DNA of 64,000 nt from NCBI GenBank assembly GCA_951406725.2, contig OX597832.1, forward strand, positions 15,004,001 through 15,068,000, written 5' to 3'. The DNA is from Octopus vulgaris. Taxonomy: Eukaryota. Positions 5,408-62,854 of the stretch are shown piece after piece. Each line of letters starts with the position of its first letter. Within the stretch, counting starts at the first letter, position 1. A program made the position numbers and the translations under genes. Under the pieces are notes generated by a model that saw only the letters and a list, made by a program, of their open reading frames with translations, searched no databases and was not told the DNA's origin.

Positions 5408-5846
5408 TTAATCAAATATATTCAATGAGAATACAATATACTGCATTTTTAATAAGTGCTCTTTAGTAGAAAATGTATAAAACATTAAAACATTTTGACG
5501 TTTAATATGAGTGATTATACGTTAAATTGTACAATAAGTGCAAGAAAATTACATCAAAAAATCATCACAGAAGATATGTCCAAAATAATATTGCATTAAT
5601 AAATAGACATATAAATATATAAAGTATGATTATTTAAAAGGTTTAAGAGTTTAAACTTTTAGACCTTTCAGATAAATATAGTCTATATATTTATACGTCT
5701 ATCTATTATTACGCTATTATTTTGGACTTATATATTATGTGATGATTTTTTGATGCAATTTTTCTGCACTAATAATATCACACTCACACACACACACACA
5801 CACGTGCATACAAACACACACACATACTCACACACACACATATGTA

Positions 5847-13999: not shown

Positions 14000-14755
14000 G
14001 AACAGATATTAATTCTGCATTCAAAATTCTGGCGTCTACTGCTAGACACTAAGAACAAATCCAAGTGCGGATCAGAAATATCTGTGATAAATTATAGTCA
14101 AGACTGGCTTACATCATCTTAAAGTTGCTAACCCTACCCGCCTTCGTAACGGCGGTGTTAGTACCTCGTATTCCACCTATAGGAATAATAATCTTACTAA
14201 TCGCTTCCAGATTTATAGTTATTTCTATTTGATATCTTATAAGCAAACGAGAAGTTGCGAGCGTCTCGGCATTGCACATTAAATGGTAATTGCTTGACCT
14301 ATTATGTTCAATATAAATGCACATTACCACATCACTATAGAAGTGATTCCAAACCTAGGCTCCACGGACACTTGATGGCCTGCAAAGATAGTACTGGGGT
14401 CCGTGAACTAAATTCGAAATTGTATATATACCTGAACTCTATTTTATATCTTATCTATTATAACTATTATAACCATTATCTAACAGCATCTATGATGAAG
14501 GGATATATAAAATATCCCGGAAACAGCCGTAAGAACTTTTATTTATAAATGTTCTGAAATCTTTCACAGCCTTGGATATTTATCTCATTCTGGTATTTTT
14601 TCCTATATATACGTATGCTGATATAAGACCTACGTTGGAATCCTCATTCACATAATCACTGAACCTGGAGCATAATTATACTCTCTCCATAGCACTTACT
14701 GAGAAGTACCTGACACATTTGGGTCATCTTGACAACATTATCTCTCATAACCTCA
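14000..14755 (+). mobile_element. Probable 3' end/pLTR of a Penelope-like element with a decayed hammerhead (14489-14534)
   Basis: TCT-ATGATGA-A-GGGATAT ataaa ATATCCC-G-GAAA-CAGCCG-TA-AGA; the element ends at a (TA)n tract. The PLE assignment is inferred from the motif architecture. Confidence 0.45.
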
Positions 14756-14756
14756 A

Positions 14757-14795
<39 letters not shown>

Positions 14796-14814
14796 CGTGT
14801 GTGTGTGTCTGTGT

Positions 14815-14960
14815 ATTGAGGGCAGCTGCATCGAACTCTCTCATGCACCAAATGGCAGTTGCTAAAAAGCATTCGTGAAGTAAAACCATGTAGCAACAGC
14901 AAATGGCGGTGTCCCAGCATGGCCACAGCTCGTGAGCTGAAACTAGAATCAATCAATCAT
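14815..14960 (+). mobile_element. Extremely 5'-truncated CR1-like LINE end
   Basis: Encodes RAAASNSLMHQMAVAKKHS*, homologous to MRVAISNSILHQVPHLRRGSS* at 47880-47960 (minus), followed by the shared GGCGGTG..CAGCATGGCC tail and (AATC)n. Confidence 0.7.
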
Positions 14961-14967
14961 TCAATCA

Positions 14968-15012
<45 letters not shown>

Positions 15013-15222
15013 AGGTTATGAGAGATAATGTTGTCAAGATGACCCAAATGTGTCAAGTACTTCTCAGTAAGTGCTATGGAGAGAGTATAATTATATATAT
15101 ATATATATATGTATGTATATATATAATGTATAAAATATATATATATATATATGTATAAAATGGCGGTGCCCCAGCATGGCCACAGCTCATTAGCTGAAAC
15201 TGGAAAAATCAAAATCAAAATC

Positions 15223-18769: not shown

Positions 18770-19304
18770 GGATCTTTACGGTTTGAACGGCGGTTTTTAA
18801 TATAATTTCTAGGTAACTAAAAACTTTTAAACTTCGTATGCTGGTAGAATGTGTTTATAAAACATCTTTTTCTCTTGGCTTCATTGAGAAAATTCTAGAG
18901 TTTGTAAGATATTTGGTCTTAAATTTCTCGCATTTCGGCAATTTCAACCAATCAATGACTGTCTATTGAGGTGAAAAGTTAAGGTTAATTAGGGTTAGGG
19001 TTAGAGGTAGGGGAAGGGTATATTTTTGTTTCTTCACAAATGTGAATAAACCACATCTGTTTCATAAACGAGGGACATATTCATACGGCACAGAATGCTT
19101 TTTAACTCAATAGACGCCAGTGATTGGTTGAAATTGCAGAAATTGAAGAAATTAAAGACCAAATATCTTAAAAACTATAGAATTTTCTCAGTAAAGCAAT
19201 GAGTAAAGGATGTTTAATAAACACGTTCTACGAGTATACGAAGTTTAAAATTTTTTAGTTACTTAGAAATTCTGTTAAAAACTGCCGTTCAAACCGAAAC
19301 GATC
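18770..19304. mobile_element. MITE with ~205 bp TIRs and a 9-bp target-site duplication (Mutator-like)
   Basis: Ends GGATCTTTACGGTTTGAACGGC / GCCGTTCAAACCGAAACGATC; AAATGTTTC repeated directly at 18761-18769 and 19305-19313. Confidence 0.85.
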
Positions 19305-27154: not shown

Positions 27155-27207
<53 letters not shown>

Positions 27208-27236
27208 GAGAAAAGAAGCAACAAGAATGGATTGGT

Positions 27237-27327
27237 TTTTAGTACAATTGTTTCATACAAAGACAGGCTTTATTAAAAGTTGCAAATATTGCAGCAGATA
27301 AAAGTGTCCTGTACTCATCAGCTAAAA
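27237..27327 (-). ncRNA. Type I hammerhead ribozyme motif (minus strand)
   Basis: TTTTAG-CTGATGA-GTAC...GTAT-GAAA-CAATTG-TA-CTAAAA: intact core, 6-bp stem I, palindromic CAATTG stem III, GUA cleavage triplet. Confidence 0.8.
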
Positions 27328-27746
27328 CACATATGAGTTCTCCAAACATCTTAGTGGGTGAGGTTACACTCATGAAGTATTGGAGATAATATCATTAAAA
27401 GCAGATTCAGGTTGTAAATAGACTTCCAAAGTTCTTTAATGATGATGCACAGTCTTATCACAGGTCTTAAAAAAGCTTATTAGCTTCACAAAGAAGTTTA
27501 ATCCATCCATAGTGTAGGTGTAAATTTCCAGAGATATGAGGAGGTATTTCATACTCACAGACGATGGATGGATTAAACTTCTTTGTGAAGCTAATAAGCT
27601 TTTTTAAGACCTGTGATAAGACTGTGCATCATCATTAAAGATCTTTGGAAGTCTGTTTACAACCTGAATCTGCTTTTAATGAAATTATCTCCAATACTTC
27701 ATGAGTGTAGCCTCACCCACTAAGATGTTTGGAGAACTCATATGTG

Positions 27747-27837
27747 TTTTAGCTGATGAGTACGGGACACTTTTATCTGCTGCAATATTTGCAACTTTTA
27801 ATAAAGCCTGTCTTTGTATGAAACAATTGTACTAAAA
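27747..27837 (+). ncRNA. Type I hammerhead ribozyme motif (plus strand)
   Basis: TTTTAG(27747)-CTGATGA(27753-59)-GTAC...GTAT-GAAA(27820-23)-CAATTG-TA-CTAAAA; predicted cleavage after 27831. Confidence 0.8.
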
Positions 27838-27980
27838 ACCAATCCATTCTTGTTGCTTCTATTCTCGTTTATAATCACCCCACACTACTGTACTGGTTAA
27901 CACCATATAGTTTTCTGGTGCATCTAAGTTAAGTACCATATTCAAGTGAATTCATTAGAATTGACTTCAATCTTAATTGC

Positions 27981-37847: not shown

Positions 37848-38437
37848 ATGTTCACTCCCAACGCATTTGTCCCCTAAACAACCACGGCCAATTATCCCTA
37901 TCTCATATCATTGCTTTCTTTCTTCGAAAATTGTTCTTACACAGCAGTAACAGAATGATATTTTATTCATTACTATCTCCGCTTATCTCTGTCACTGATT
38001 TTCTAATAAACATTACTAATAAACATTATTTATGAAGAATTTTATACCTGCACTTGAAAACGCGTTGTCGTAGAATATAGCTAATATGTAATCCATTACT
38101 TGCCCCACTTCCTCTATCTTCGGGTTGCTAATTAGTACCATGCTTAAAAAATAAGTATCGTTCGTCAAAACTACCTTAGGCGGTGTCTAAGGCGGTGACT
38201 TAACGAAAAGCTATAGAGTCAACAGACGTGTATCCTAGAAAAAAAATGTATATACGAAGTGTAATGTCTGAAGGAGGTGACAGTGTACGAAGACAGAGAT
38301 ATTCGGAGATAGTAGTGAATAAAATATCATTGTGTTACTTTTATGTAAGGGCAATTTGCGGAGAATGAAATCAATGATGTGAGATAGGGATAATTGGTCG
38401 TGATTGTTTAGGAGACAAAGGAGGTGGGTGTGAACAT
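37848..38437. mobile_element. MITE-like element with ~145 bp degenerate TIRs
   Basis: CCAATTATCCCTATCTCA / TGAGATAGGGATAATTGG and AATGATATTTTATTCA / TGAATAAAATATCATT pair as inverted arms. Confidence 0.75.
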
Positions 38438-48615: not shown

Positions 48616-49323
48616 TCACTGCACAGCTACGCTTGCTCAAATTTTTCATAGCTTTAACACTAATACAATCTCATCTAGTTATATATATTTTTAAAGCATC
48701 CTAATATATGACACATCATATGCAAATCATTTTTGAGAAATGTTCAGTTCCTGTGTGTGTTAGTGTGTGTTTGTGAATGTGTTTGTGTGTGTGTCTGTGC
48801 TAGAGTGTGTTTGTGTGCATGTGTGCGTGTGTGCTCGCGCGTATGTTTGTGTGTGACTGTGATTTTGTTTGAGTGTGTGTTTAATTATGTGAGCGAGCAC
48901 GTGTCTTTGCGAGTCAGGAAGAGTACAAAATTTTGAAAATTTGCTGAAATATTTATGTTTATGATTTATCATAACGTTCTGACGCAATTTTTTCCTTTAG
49001 GACGTTTCTAATATTGTCGATTAATGTGTACATTGCTTTATGTACATGTGTCTATGTTTTGGGGTTAGACAACATTTTTTAAATGCGCTTAGGAGCGACC
49101 AACAAAGACTTTCGACCACCTGTTTTCCATTTTTATGTATGCGTTTGAATGATGGTGTACATGTGAGTTAGTATATGTGTATCCGCTTGTTTGCGAGGGA
49201 CACTGTGAGCGAGATAGAGAAACAGACGTATTGATTATCTCCAATAGCGTCTCATCCAAAAGGGCTTTCTATTTATCGACTTGAGTTTATATAAAGAAAT
49301 GTCAGCTGATTACTCTTTACTCT

Positions 49324-49750
49324 GTTACTCTTTTACTTGTTTCAGTCATTTGACTGCGGCCATGCTGGAGCACCGCCTTTAATCGAGCAACTCGACCCCG
49401 GGACTTATTCCTTTGTAAGCCAAGTACTTATTCTATCGGTCTCTTTTGCCGAACCGCTGGGGACATAAACACACCAGCATCGGTTGTCAAGCAATGCTAG
49501 GGGGACAAACACAAACATACAAACACAAACATACAAAACACACACACACACACACACATATATATACATATATATATACATATATACAACAGGCTTCTTT
49601 CAGTTTCTGTCTACCAAATCCACTCACAAGGCTTTGGTCGGCTCGAGGCTATAGAAGAAGACACTTGCCCAAGGTGCCACGCAGTGGGACTGAACCCGGA
49701 ACCATGTGGTTGGTAAACAAGCTACTTACAACACAGTCACTCGTGCGTCT
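49324..49750 (-). mobile_element. SINE family A
   Basis: Near full-length reverse complement of 1097-1525. Confidence 0.92.
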
Positions 49751-50511
49751 ATAATAATAATAAATCTAAAATTAAAATATCACTGGAGTGGTAGTCTAAC
49801 AAGTGTATTAAATTCAACAGATTTCTTATCTGAATCAAGGCATTAAAAGTTTGATTCACTTCTCGTGGTATGTTAATACTTATTTTGTGCGCATGTGTAA
49901 GTGTGCGGTGGTTATGATTTAATTTCTTTTTACTTTTTCTTTGTAGTTGCAGCAATAAAATCAGCACCATTAATATCATATGATTAAATTTGTACTTCTA
50001 AAGTAGATATTCTTCAATAAAAATTTTCCATGTCAATATAAAACTTCATAACACTTCATCCTACGTTAGAAATTCAACACAATTGTCACAAGCACAGACA
50101 CAAGCACACACTCACACAAACAGGAACACGCATACATGCAGACTCATGCACCCGCACATATATTAAGAAACGGGCATACACATATGCACCCAGATATGCA
50201 TTAGTAACCTATATGAAGATAAGATAAGTAATAATTGAATAAAATAGAACAGTATTCACACGAGCACGAGCGCACTTCGAGGAGACGGGTCGATATCACA
50301 GACTGTACACCCACCTACACACTACTTCAGGCATCATAAGGACACATAGTAGCAGAAACGATAGCGTGAACGGCGAACGAACTGGTGACAAAAACAACCA
50401 CGATGGGAACATGACAGTAGCCCTCTAAAAGCAACGGCTGACAGGCTGCTGTTGACAATGATGACGGCGACAATGACCCTTCTTCCACCACCACCACCAC
50501 CAACAACAAGT

Positions 50512-54439: not shown

Positions 54440-56120
54440 AATGACATATAACTCTAAAAGAAACAATTTACACTCGAAAAACCTCAAATTCTAGAAAACG
54501 TAGATACAGTAAGTGCAATTAGTGATGTATTGCAAGAAGGACCCTTCATGGGCGAAAGCAAGTAGAATTCGATATTATATTACAAGAATGGATTTTAGCG
54601 AAGCGAAATGAAGCTAAAGCACTATCAGGACAAATGCTAATTGTTAAAGCAAAATCTCTGAAAAAAGAGTTGAATATCATAAAGGATATGAACTTCAGGC
54701 CAGGCTGCCTTAGAAGTTTTAAGAGATACATAGCATACGGCAATTGACAATTTCAGGGGAACAGCGTTCAGCTGATAGTCAACTTATTGTAAAAAATTAA
54801 AATTATAGAATAAATCAACTCCCTTCATAGTGACATATGATTCTAAAAAGAAACAAGTTATTCGAAAAGCATCAAATTGTAGAAAAATTAGATACGTGAA
54901 GTGCAAATAGTGATATATTGAATGATTATAAGATTGGAAGGAGATCACTGTTCTACATGAAAAAGACCAGGGAAGAAATATTGAATGCTGCTCCTCTTTG
55001 ATATTATATACCATGCTGATGAAACTGGTATACATTGGAAGTGCTTACCCACCAAAATATTAGCTGGATTAGAATAGCATAAAATAAAAGGATTCAATTC
55101 AAAGAGAGACTTACAGTGATGGTATGTACTAATGCTTCTGGTACTCACAAATTTTAGCTTCTTGTCATTGGTAAATCTAAGGGCCCCCGAGCTTTGAAAA
55201 GAGTTTCACCTTTACCAGTATCATATTATTCTTCAAAAAAAAAAAAAAACGCATGGATAAATCAACACTTGTTCACTGAATAGTTCATACAAGAATTTGT
55301 GTCAGCTGTAGAAAACTGCTCTCACGAATTAGGTAAATATCATTGAAAGTGCCTGCTGTTATTAGACAATTGTAGAGCACATCCTCACGAGTCAATATTA
55401 TTGTCATCGTGCGGGAATGAGTTTGCGTATTACTTACCACTGAATGTGACATATCTCATGCAACCTATGGACCAAGGAATTATTTTGAGATTAAAATATT
55501 TCTACAGAAATGATTTCATGATGTATATGATAAATAACAATGTTAGTATAGGCGATTTCCAGCGCAATTTTACCATCAAAATGCCATTTTTCTCATCGAA
55601 ATTGCATGGAATCAGATTCGAGCAGTCACATTAACAACAGCCTGGGGAACATTATACCCAGCGTCTAGTGCTCTTGAAGTGAGAGAGGCAGATAATGAAT
55701 CTGGAGTACAAAATATTCTTGAAACTACACACTTTCAAATAAACACACAGTTTCTCAATCACTTGAAATTGAAATGCGGGGGCGACAAGACGAAGAAACT
55801 ACTGAACAATGTCCTGAAGAAAATAGCGGTCATGAAATCTGCGACAGCAACAGATTCCGTTGGAGTGAGTCTAATGTAAATGAGGCTGAAAAGTCTATGG
55901 AGATATGATAAAATATGATAAGATGATAGAAAGAAATCCTTACTTTATTGACAACTATGCTTTGCAAGCAACGTCACTTGGAAAGGATATGATCATAAAG
56001 AGACTACAGCACCAGGAAATAGTGTAATTTCGTGATTGCTTCAGGAATGCAATGGCAGCCTCCAATGTTTCGACAAAGGAAGACAGAAACGAAAGTGAAG
56101 AAGCTTATTCAATGAATGAA
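54440..56120 (+). pseudogene. Decayed Tigger/pogo (CENP-B/DDE_1) transposase
   Basis: ADETGIHWKCLPTK, TVMVCTNASG, LLVIGKSKGPRAL, NAWINQHLF, LLLLDNCRAHP and YLPLNVTYLMQPMDQGIILRLK are pogo/Tigger DDE motifs; multiple stops. Confidence 0.88.
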
Positions 56121-56489: not shown

Positions 56490-56955
56490 ATAAGGGTAAA
56501 TATAATGACAAGCAAGTTAGTGAAGTCTCTATACAAAAGAATATTAAATACATTTAATACAAACCAGATCCATATTTATACATATAAAAGAAGTCCGACG
56601 TACACAGAATGGAAATGATGTAAGGAATTAAGGAATAAGAGTAGATGTTTTTCGAGTCAAACAGCTGTTTCTGCGGGCTTGGTGGTTCAATGTAATGCTT
56701 GTAACTTGATTCCATCATCACATACCACCAGCTTCCGTCTTCGGGGAAGAATCTACATTTGCCATCAAGCCCCCAGAAACAGCAGCTGATCTCGTAAATC
56801 TCCTACACCCCCCTTCTTACTACCCTATATAATTTCTAGTCTGTGTAAGTCGGAGTTATTTTATATGTATACATATATACATTTTTGTATTAAATGATTT
56901 TAACATAGTTTGTATATCGACTTGACTGACTTGCTTGTCCTTACATTTACTCCTC
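56490..56955. mobile_element. Degenerate inverted-repeat element next to (TA)n
   Basis: GACAAGCAAGT / ACTTGCTTGTC, CATTTAATACAAA / TTTGTATTAAATG and CTGTTTCTG.GGGCTTG / CAAGCCCCCAGAAACAG pair as arms. Confidence 0.7.
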
Positions 56956-61073: not shown

Positions 61074-61154
<81 letters not shown>

Positions 61155-61183
61155 GTAATATGCGACAATTATTCGGTAGCCAT

Positions 61184-61244
61184 GATAAAATTCCGAATTT
61201 CGGATGCCCGGGTAGAAAACCACGCCACTATCTCTTCAGTTATC
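61184..61244 (-). ncRNA. Type I hammerhead-like motif (minus strand)
   Basis: GATAA-CTGAAGA-GAT...ATCC-GAA-ATT cgg AAT-T-TTATC. Confidence 0.6.
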
Positions 61245-61276
61245 CGGCCATCGGAGAAAATGCTATCCGATTCCCG

Positions 61277-61337
61277 GGTAACTGAAGAGATGGCGGCGTG
61301 GATATCCACATAGGCATGCGAAACACGGTGTTTTATC
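61277..61337 (+). ncRNA. Type I hammerhead-like motif (plus strand)
   Basis: GGTAA-CTGAAGA-GATG...CATGC-GAA-ACA cgg TGT-T-TTATC. Confidence 0.6.
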
Positions 61338-61979
61338 ACGGCTACCGAATAATTGTCACATATTACATTTACAGATAAATTCCTCTATTTACATAATATA
61401 TGAGCGCGGGTGTGTGTGTGTGGTTGGTATGACGTGTGCATGTGAATATGTACATATACATGTTTATCTCTGCATACGAATGAAAATTCTTAATATTTCA
61501 AACAGAGACAACTCTATGCCAGCATAAATTCCTACGACTTAATTCAAATTACACTCCTCTAATGTATGCAGCAATATCTGTGACACTACGCTTCCAAATA
61601 TAACGGCCTGCAGTGAATTATTTCTGCTAAGGAAATCGTAATGTATATTTGAAACATTTACTAATATCTTAATGCCTATTATATTAAATATTTAGTTTAT
61701 GTTCGCATGGTGTTCTCATGTCTCGACCTCGTTTATTGGTCTTTTATTAGCAAAGGCAATGTCTCCTGTATGTCTGAGATTAACTTTACAAACCATTTTA
61801 AAATAGCTGCATATAAATTGCACGTATTTTGAATAATTGATCTTCCTAAATGAAAAGAGATTGACGCACCGTGTTTATCTATATATCTATCAATATATTT
61901 ACCTCTTTGTCTACCTAGTTAACTAAATCTCCATCTATTTAAGTATTATTCCCTCTGTCATTCTATCTTTCTCTCTCTG

Positions 61980-62114: not shown

Positions 62115-62533
62115 CTCTCTTTTTACTCTTTTACTTGTTTCAGTCATTTGACTGCGGCCATGCTGGAGCACCGCCTTTAGTCGAGCAAATCGACCCCAGG
62201 ACTTATTCTTTGTAAGCCCGGTACTTATTCTATCGGTCTCTTTTGCCGAACCGCTAAGTGACGGGGACGTAAACACACCAGCATCGGTTGTCAAGCAATG
62301 CTAGGGAGACAAACACACACTGACACAAACACACACACATACACATATATACATATATATACATATATACGACAGGCTTCTTTCAGTTTATGTCTACCAA
62401 ATCCACTCACAAGGCATTGGTCGGCCCGGGGCTATAGCAGTAGACACTTGCCTAAGATGCCACGCAGTGGGACTGAACCTGGAACCATGTGGTTGGTTAG
62501 CAAGCTACTTACCACACAGCCACTCCTGCGCCT
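62114..62533 (-). mobile_element. SINE family A
   Basis: Full-length reverse complement of 1097-1525. Confidence 0.92.
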
Positions 62534-62854
62534 ATATATATATGCGTGTGTGTGTGTATGTGTGTGTGTATGTAGGTATTAATATATATGTCTGTATGGT
62601 TTACGTATGTACGGATGTTTTCGTCATCATTGGAGTGGATCAATGCTGGGAAACTGACTACAATGTGGTTTTCTGAAAATATCATCTCTGTCTTGATGTT
62701 GTCTCTGTTTGTCTTTCACTGTAGCACTTATTTTTCGGTCACATTTATCTAACACTTATATAAGAATGACTTAATGAAGAAGCGTCGTTTGCCAAGCGTT
62801 GCGACACGGGTTGAAAAAGTTCTTTTACACCTCCTGATGATATCAATCCTTGTT

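Follow-up and report, generated by a model that had tools for sequence, protein, structure and literature searches.

A palindrome that carries a hammerhead motif on each strand raises the question of whether it is the genomic trace of a viroid-like RNA or the footprint of a mobile element, and, where its two arms disagree, whether the disagreement arose before or after insertion. Such a palindrome begins at 61150 in the window, the whole 64,000-nt stretch of DNA analysed here, which is AT-rich and holds many microsatellites. We conclude that it very probably consists of two 5'-truncated 3' ends of an abundant hammerhead-bearing repeat, brought in by an insertion of the type made by Penelope-like elements (PLEs), and on balance we favour a version of this event in which the arms were copied from two non-identical templates. 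The locus is likely an ordinary PLE-type footprint of a known kind, and not a viroid-like RNA.

Layout of the palindrome

The segment 61150-61372 folds as one long hairpin (-138.8 kcal/mol, z = -16.5, with 0/200 shuffles as good), and blastn finds no similarity between it and a second palindrome of the window, near 27.2 kb; both the hairpin and its independence in sequence had been proposed in an earlier, sequence-only reading. The arms (61150-61255 and 61266-61371) are 17% apart, with 18/106 aligned sites unlike. As that reading had also noticed, they differ most inside the ribozyme, where stem II has 9/31 and stem III 4/9 sites unlike, compared with 2/34 in the outer part; the inner part has 3/16, and the core, the GAA and H17/stem I 3' strand together have 0/16. 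The features of the locus are collected in Table 1.

Table 1. Features of the palindrome and its target, in window coordinates
Feature	Position	Strand	Details
(TA)n run, target	61081..61151	.	its final two bases also belong to the element end
Left arm, 5'-truncated copy of the family 3' end, short 3' end against (TA)n	61150..61266	-	
Head-to-head junction	61256..61266	.	10 nt of left arm only plus 1 nt (61266) common to both arms
Right arm, second 5'-truncated copy	61266..61371	+	
One-sided tail, 28 nt, long 3' end	61372..61399	+	family sequence; then AT and unique flank here
Predicted type I hammerhead, left arm	61184..61244	-	GATAA 61244-40; core CTGAAGA 61239-33; stem II 61232-02; stem III ATT-cgg-AAT 61198-90; predicted AUU 61191-89
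Predicted type I hammerhead, right arm	61277..61337	+	stem I GGTAA 61277-81 / TTATC 61333-37; core CTGAAGA 61282-88; stem II 61289-319; GAA 61320-22; stem III ACA-cgg-TGT 61323-31; predicted GUU 61330-32
Predicted stem I extension (61268-76 with 61339-47)	61268..61347	+	missed by the sequence-only reading

Predicted hammerheads

A type I hammerhead descriptor matches four times in the 64-kb window, each time within the 61150 palindrome or the one near 27.2 kb, against a mean of 0.43 and a maximum of 3 matches by chance (100 Markov resamples). These matches bear out the outward-pointing core that had been placed in each arm. Rfam gives no match at the gathering score, and there is no hammerhead family among its 14 weak matches (E <= 10).

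Both arms contain the minimal-hammerhead boxes CUGANGA and GAAA and an NUH site in the type I arrangement. Across a single bulge a pair between G61289 and C61319 is possible, giving the G10.1-C11.1 pair and a long helix II, of which 10/11 and 9/11 modelled pairs are formed in the two arms. Both arms have an extra base between stem II and GAAA (61318-61319; 61203-61202), and at 61318 most of the family has C (95-99% of depth). Stem III is 3 bp long in both arms and its loop, CGG, is not self-complementary. With its extension stem I is predicted to reach 13 bp; 8/8 pairs of the extension are intact in the left arm and two are broken in the right, where family-majority letters at 61272-73 repair them. 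As for the predicted cleavage sites, GUU and AUU are weaker hammerhead sites than GUC.

A repeat family with two 3' ends

The family was viewed through public DNA contigs aligned to this stretch at a likeness of at least 80%, in four DNA runs from three organisms, the contigs showing at most 30 letters beyond the stretch ends. Between 1,615 and 4,930 contigs per run align in 4/4 DNA runs, and the ratio to unique-flank depth gives a rough bracket of about 900 to 60,000 family copies, contig depth being no true copy number.

In 4/4 DNA runs loose ends show the family continuing beyond 61266, with 28-54 contigs per run, among the loose ends listed, carrying left-arm sequence on. Because left-arm sequence continues there, we read the 10-nt loop of the hairpin as extra 5' sequence of the left arm. 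At the other end, again among the loose ends listed, 22-58 contigs per run become (TA)n after 61377, and 51-89 contigs go on after 61399 with one shared sequence (agreement 0.81-0.86); the family therefore has a short and a long 3' end. At the 61150 locus the left side has the short end, while the right side has the long one together with its 28-nt tail (61372-61399, covered by contigs of 4/4 runs). Any target-site duplication at the palindrome is masked by the TA run. The 7-mer ATTTACA occurs at 61367-61373 and 61387-61393, just before the short end (61377) and the long end (61399), and judged by this placement it is a possible start-site signal.

Other copies are joined elsewhere. Among the 15 joints listed of 79, 11 start at 61252-61260 and reach 10 different places between 61280 and 61367, and one further joint (61190-61253) is on opposite strands; the depth of the joints listed is 7-120, around the single-copy level, which is 40-46 in runs X2 and X18. 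Bridging contigs are record 19 of X18, with 8 gaps, and record 28 of X2, with 3 gaps. Truncation points seemed to gather just 5' of stem I, an impression that we set aside, as aligning to this stretch biases the joints.

This family context bears directly on two other readings of the locus. A viroid-like origin, in which an ambisense rod RNA of ~250 nt self-cleaves in both polarities, replicates as a circle and was copied into the genome, would agree with a hammerhead on each strand, with the rod-like fold and with a size inside the viroid range of 220-450 nt, as given in the accessible text of PMC11888127 (the other papers cited here are likewise drawn on through their accessible parts). However, the arms copy one sequence that extends beyond both ends, the junctions differ among copies with no fixed unit length, and the palindrome, which has only self and inverted matches in the window and no direct copy there, shows no terminal redundancy. 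The rod then appears as a by-product of inversion, and the viroid-like unit, which the sequence-only reading had brought up, becomes the least probable of the readings considered. A MITE-like DNA element, with terminal inverted repeats that contain hammerhead motifs by chance, would similarly explain long inverted arms ending in TA, and the window also contains a DDE_1 transposase fragment. This reading is already largely refuted by the asymmetric ends, with a tail on one side only, by the family sequence found past both ends and by the junctions that vary among copies, and we consider it hardly more probable than the viroid-like one.

The insertion is present in organisms A and B, which are the two that the comparison covers (the contig of organism C ends at 61438). 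In organism B one contig connects the tail with the unique flank, which differs at 8/327 positions; the insertion is consequently older than the split from organism B. At 97% likeness two presumed RNA runs yielded 5 contigs on family parts (X7) and 0 (X8), counts that weigh neither for nor against expression. The best-matching public runs contained 28% of 18 query words, with no RNA run on record among those listed, and pattern scans of metagenome, viral and genome contig sets returned 0 matches. No contigs at 97% likeness lie over 61209-15 or 61307-27 and none reach 61328-29, nor is the exact junction of this copy bridged among 21 of 496 pieces listed at that likeness. These gaps carry no weight, because rare variants are lost from contigs and libraries may lose hairpins.

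Stem III changes and the upkeep of structure

In the family, the majority stem III of both arms is ACT-cgg-AGT, these letters making up 98-99% of depth at 61191 and 61197 and 83-98% at 61325 and 61329. Relative to this majority, the left arm has changed the second pair of stem III from C-G to T-A, and the right arm the third pair from T-A to A-T. Each arm has changed a different pair, and the stem III difference first noticed between the arms (ACA-cgg-TGT versus ATT-cgg-AAT) therefore goes back to two separate, true double changes. A Watson-Crick double change anywhere in both arms has a chance probability of about 0.006, and one counted over stem III alone about 1e-5, both figures being post hoc. 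The double changes are rare, with upper bounds of 1.9% and 0.3% of depth. With most of the depth at these sites reading one and the same stem, covariation at family level is not supported.

Three contigs with a depth of 850-1,112 span both left-arm stem III sites and carry a single unlisted difference, from which it follows that other copies share one or both of the left changes. The best fit of the bin arithmetic suggests that it is the 3'-side change alone which is shared. If so, the left compensation would be a single private transition, making a weaker case for an inherited compensated variant.

The claim that pairing is kept despite the differences between the arms holds for stem III and stem I as first described, and fails when the 26 modelled pairs per arm are counted, 3 of which are broken in the right arm and 2 in the left. 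The five uncompensated breaks fall in the right extended stem I (two), the right stem II (one) and the left stem II (two), and family-majority letters restore all of them. Broken pairs are not depleted (5 observed versus 7.0 expected, p 0.24), and the further proposal that structure is maintained separately in each arm is not supported.

Differences before or after insertion

CpG-type changes make up 5/18 of the differences between the arms. The remaining 13, all non-CpG, are confined to the inner 72 nt, and the outer 34 nt contain none (p 0.008 by Fisher's test and 0.003 by a span test), with region bounds set after seeing the data. This split favours two non-identical templates over later decay. 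A decay of 2.4-3% per arm predicts 3.5-4.3 inner differences (p 7e-5 to 6e-4), and at 5% per arm the inner excess weakens to p = 0.03. In the outer parts of the arms the letters are those of abundant variants, and at 97% likeness no alternative letter is listed there. The dinucleotide at 61311-12 fits a double decay of a CpG that survives in the left arm only, pointing to a close common source of the two arms and counting against two templates.

The main competing explanation is a PLE-type inverted insertion whose arms were identical at the outset, produced by fold-back self-priming or from one template used twice, so that the 18 differences reflect later neutral decay, CpG loss and possibly short template switches imitating compensation. 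Several observations are in keeping with it: pair breaks are not depleted, part of the differences are CpG-type, both stem III variants are rare, and the insertion is old enough to be common to organism B. Fold-back self-priming has been proposed for inverted PLE ends (PMC3846280), template switching can yield matching stem changes (PMC8794818), and the locus was singled out for its pattern in the first place. On the other side, identical arms do not readily account for the one-sided distribution of the non-CpG differences or for two separate double changes (p 0.006), and decay is expected to leave a scattered pattern such as that of the palindrome near 27.2 kb, where 12/322 arm sites differ. 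We therefore treat identical arms as a serious though less probable alternative. Judging from the sequence, most of the arm differences may well have been present in the templates already, a view that we somewhat prefer to later decay or template switching.

A possible insertion mechanism

Under the two-template reading, a Penelope-like reverse transcriptase-endonuclease would cut both strands of the TA run, and cDNA would be primed from each side of the cut, beginning for the left end at the short start site and for the tail at the long one, which lies 28 nt farther in the 3' direction. Both cDNAs would halt just 5' of the ribozyme, and their truncated ends would join through 1 nt of microhomology. 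Two separate RNAs might have served as templates, or a single tandem RNA might have supplied both as different units. Selection for the stem III double changes would then predate the insertion, having acted in the replicating source lineages or tandem-RNA units and not at this locus. We give about an even chance to this fuller account, in which priming started on both sides of a double-strand cut, with a different RNA template on either side, and the event is recorded in stem III variants that had been selected separately. The enzyme, the dual priming, the two templates and the inertness discussed below are what we infer from the layout, the arm differences and the folding models.

Such a sequence of events has a biochemical precedent in a purified PLE protein, predicted to be dimeric, that cleaves both strands, extends each of them and initiates at two sites, one at either boundary of the tail (PMC11167929). 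Fold-back self-priming predicts identical arms at insertion, whereas priming from both sides of the cut allows unlike arms. In the open-access literature we found no paper describing two-template inverted PLE insertions.

The family itself is tied to PLEs by layout only, since the window frames contain no PLE reverse transcriptase or GIY-YIG. The Pfam scan took in 53 frames of at least 85 aa, low-complexity frames being left out; 1/53 matches Pfam (DDE_1), none matches a PLE reverse transcriptase or GIY-YIG domain, and no host gene was matched among them.

The palindrome bears on how PLEs make inverted ends, and inverted PLE insertions of this kind can mimic "ambisense ribozyme" rods in genome scans. 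If the stem III variants did come from separate source lineages, the locus would decide between fold-back and two-sided priming for one family; mismatched-arm palindromes would then exclude fold-back self-priming for such insertions, and two-template events could be counted genome-wide, palindrome by palindrome.

Folding and predicted inertness of the locus

Forcing the hammerhead in the full RNA costs 65.2 kcal/mol on the plus and 68.8 kcal/mol on the minus strand, and in the equilibrium model the hammerhead pairs have a probability of 0.0 in full-length RNA. The arm mismatches, which had been thought to let the ribozyme fold rival the long hairpin, therefore do not make the hammerhead competitive at equilibrium, the one regime that this model describes. 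In a read-through RNA the partner arm is transcribed first. Such an RNA is predicted to adopt the long hairpin, leaving the locus inert.

These figures also weigh on the idea that host selection kept the locus after insertion, as a working ribozyme on each strand or as regulatory double-stranded RNA. The 13 invariant core sites are unchanged between the arms (chance 0.075), the insertion is found in organisms A and B, and a minus RNA starting at 61266, which contains the left arm only, is the one RNA predicted to form stem I (probability 0.65), stem III not being formed; all this would be consistent with retained function. Set against it are the five broken pairs, the isolated arms, whose folds are not more stable than those of shuffled sequences (z 1.25 and -0.35), and the 65-69 kcal/mol by which the hairpin is favoured. 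PLE hammerheads with a 3-bp or tiny helix III are moreover reported to be slow and to need dimers (PMC4209133), and the two stem IIIs of this locus are located on opposite strands and cannot cross-pair. Host selection thus seems very unlikely, if a little less so than the MITE-like and viroid-like readings. In the Anolis element PAc the hammerhead depends on protein, and insertion in vitro can proceed without this ribozyme (PMC11167929).

Relation to known elements

The locus is closest in layout to inverted insertions of endonuclease-positive (EN+) PLEs (PMC8557442, PMC3846280), sharing with them head-to-head truncated copies, a one-sided tail, a (TA)n target, microhomology at the 5' junction and a hammerhead near the 3' end. 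The accessible account in PMC8557442 gives a 5'-truncated inverted copy, a tail of 30-40 bp at one end and a bias towards microsatellites, and according to PMC3846280 one inverted pLTR carries an optional 31-bp tail; at 28 nt the tail observed here is slightly shorter than the 30-40 bp of the former. Unlike those insertions, the locus has no ORF at it or linked to its family, and its arms are 17% apart with clustered differences.

Minimal hammerheads in opposite-strand pairs, 100-700 bp apart, are described from metazoan PLE pseudo-LTRs (PMC4209133; reviewed in PMC6765202). The predicted motifs resemble those of PMC4209133 in being of type I with intact core boxes, a long helix II and a very short helix III. 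They depart from them, as far as the accessible description goes, in where the extra nucleotide sits (3' side of helix II, not between 9 and 10.1), in a stem I predicted at 13 bp, and in a CGG loop that is not palindromic, a palindromic helix III and loop being what serves dimer formation in PLE hammerheads.

Anolis Poseidon PAc (PMC11167929) offers a second point of comparison, with two 3' ends bounding the tail, an AT-rich target and an ATG that opens stem II, found here in the right arm at 61290-92. In contrast to what is reported for PAc, the frame of this ATG closes at TAG 61311-13 here and at TAA 61350-52 in the conserved part, and the tail is without a stable stem-loop here (-1.0 kcal/mol).

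Animal non-LTR retrozymes (PMC7229834; bioRxiv 10.64898/2026.07.22.740005) are similarly non-coding, carry a type I hammerhead and are likely PLE-derived or PLE-mobilised. They are defined in these sources as direct tandem repeats giving circular RNA, whereas the window contains no direct tandem repeat of a 150-450 bp unit. Since the window frames and contig ends showed neither an ORF nor a tandem array, we do not class the family as an autonomous PLE or a retrozyme. With Avsunviroidae and viroid-like RNAs (PMC11888127) the locus shares hammerhead motifs on both strands, predicted ones in our case, a rod-like fold and a similar size, but unlike the Avsunviroidae it belongs to a DNA repeat family and is inserted in a chromosome, its arms being inverted duplicates and its unit having no fixed length.

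Other repeats in the window

The second twin-hammerhead palindrome (27201-27873) has the same inverted layout and is younger. Its cores, CTGATGA in both cases, lie at 27321 (-) and 27753 (+) and are separated from GAAA by 60 nt; to its left is (TA)n and to its right an unpaired extension. Another palindrome, at 2570-2823, has an 87% self-match, adjoins (TA)n on the left and gives no hammerhead descriptor match; its start resembles the end of the 61150 palindrome in AT content only. Inverted repeats at 5534-5773, 56496-56950, 18771-19304, 37848-38437 and 14672-15094 have 69-98% identity and likewise no hammerhead descriptor match. The DDE_1 transposase fragment lies at 55347-55631 (E 6e-13). 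A dispersed repeat of ~430 bp is present in three copies (62118-62541, 1088-1512 and 49321-49754) that are 87-93% alike.
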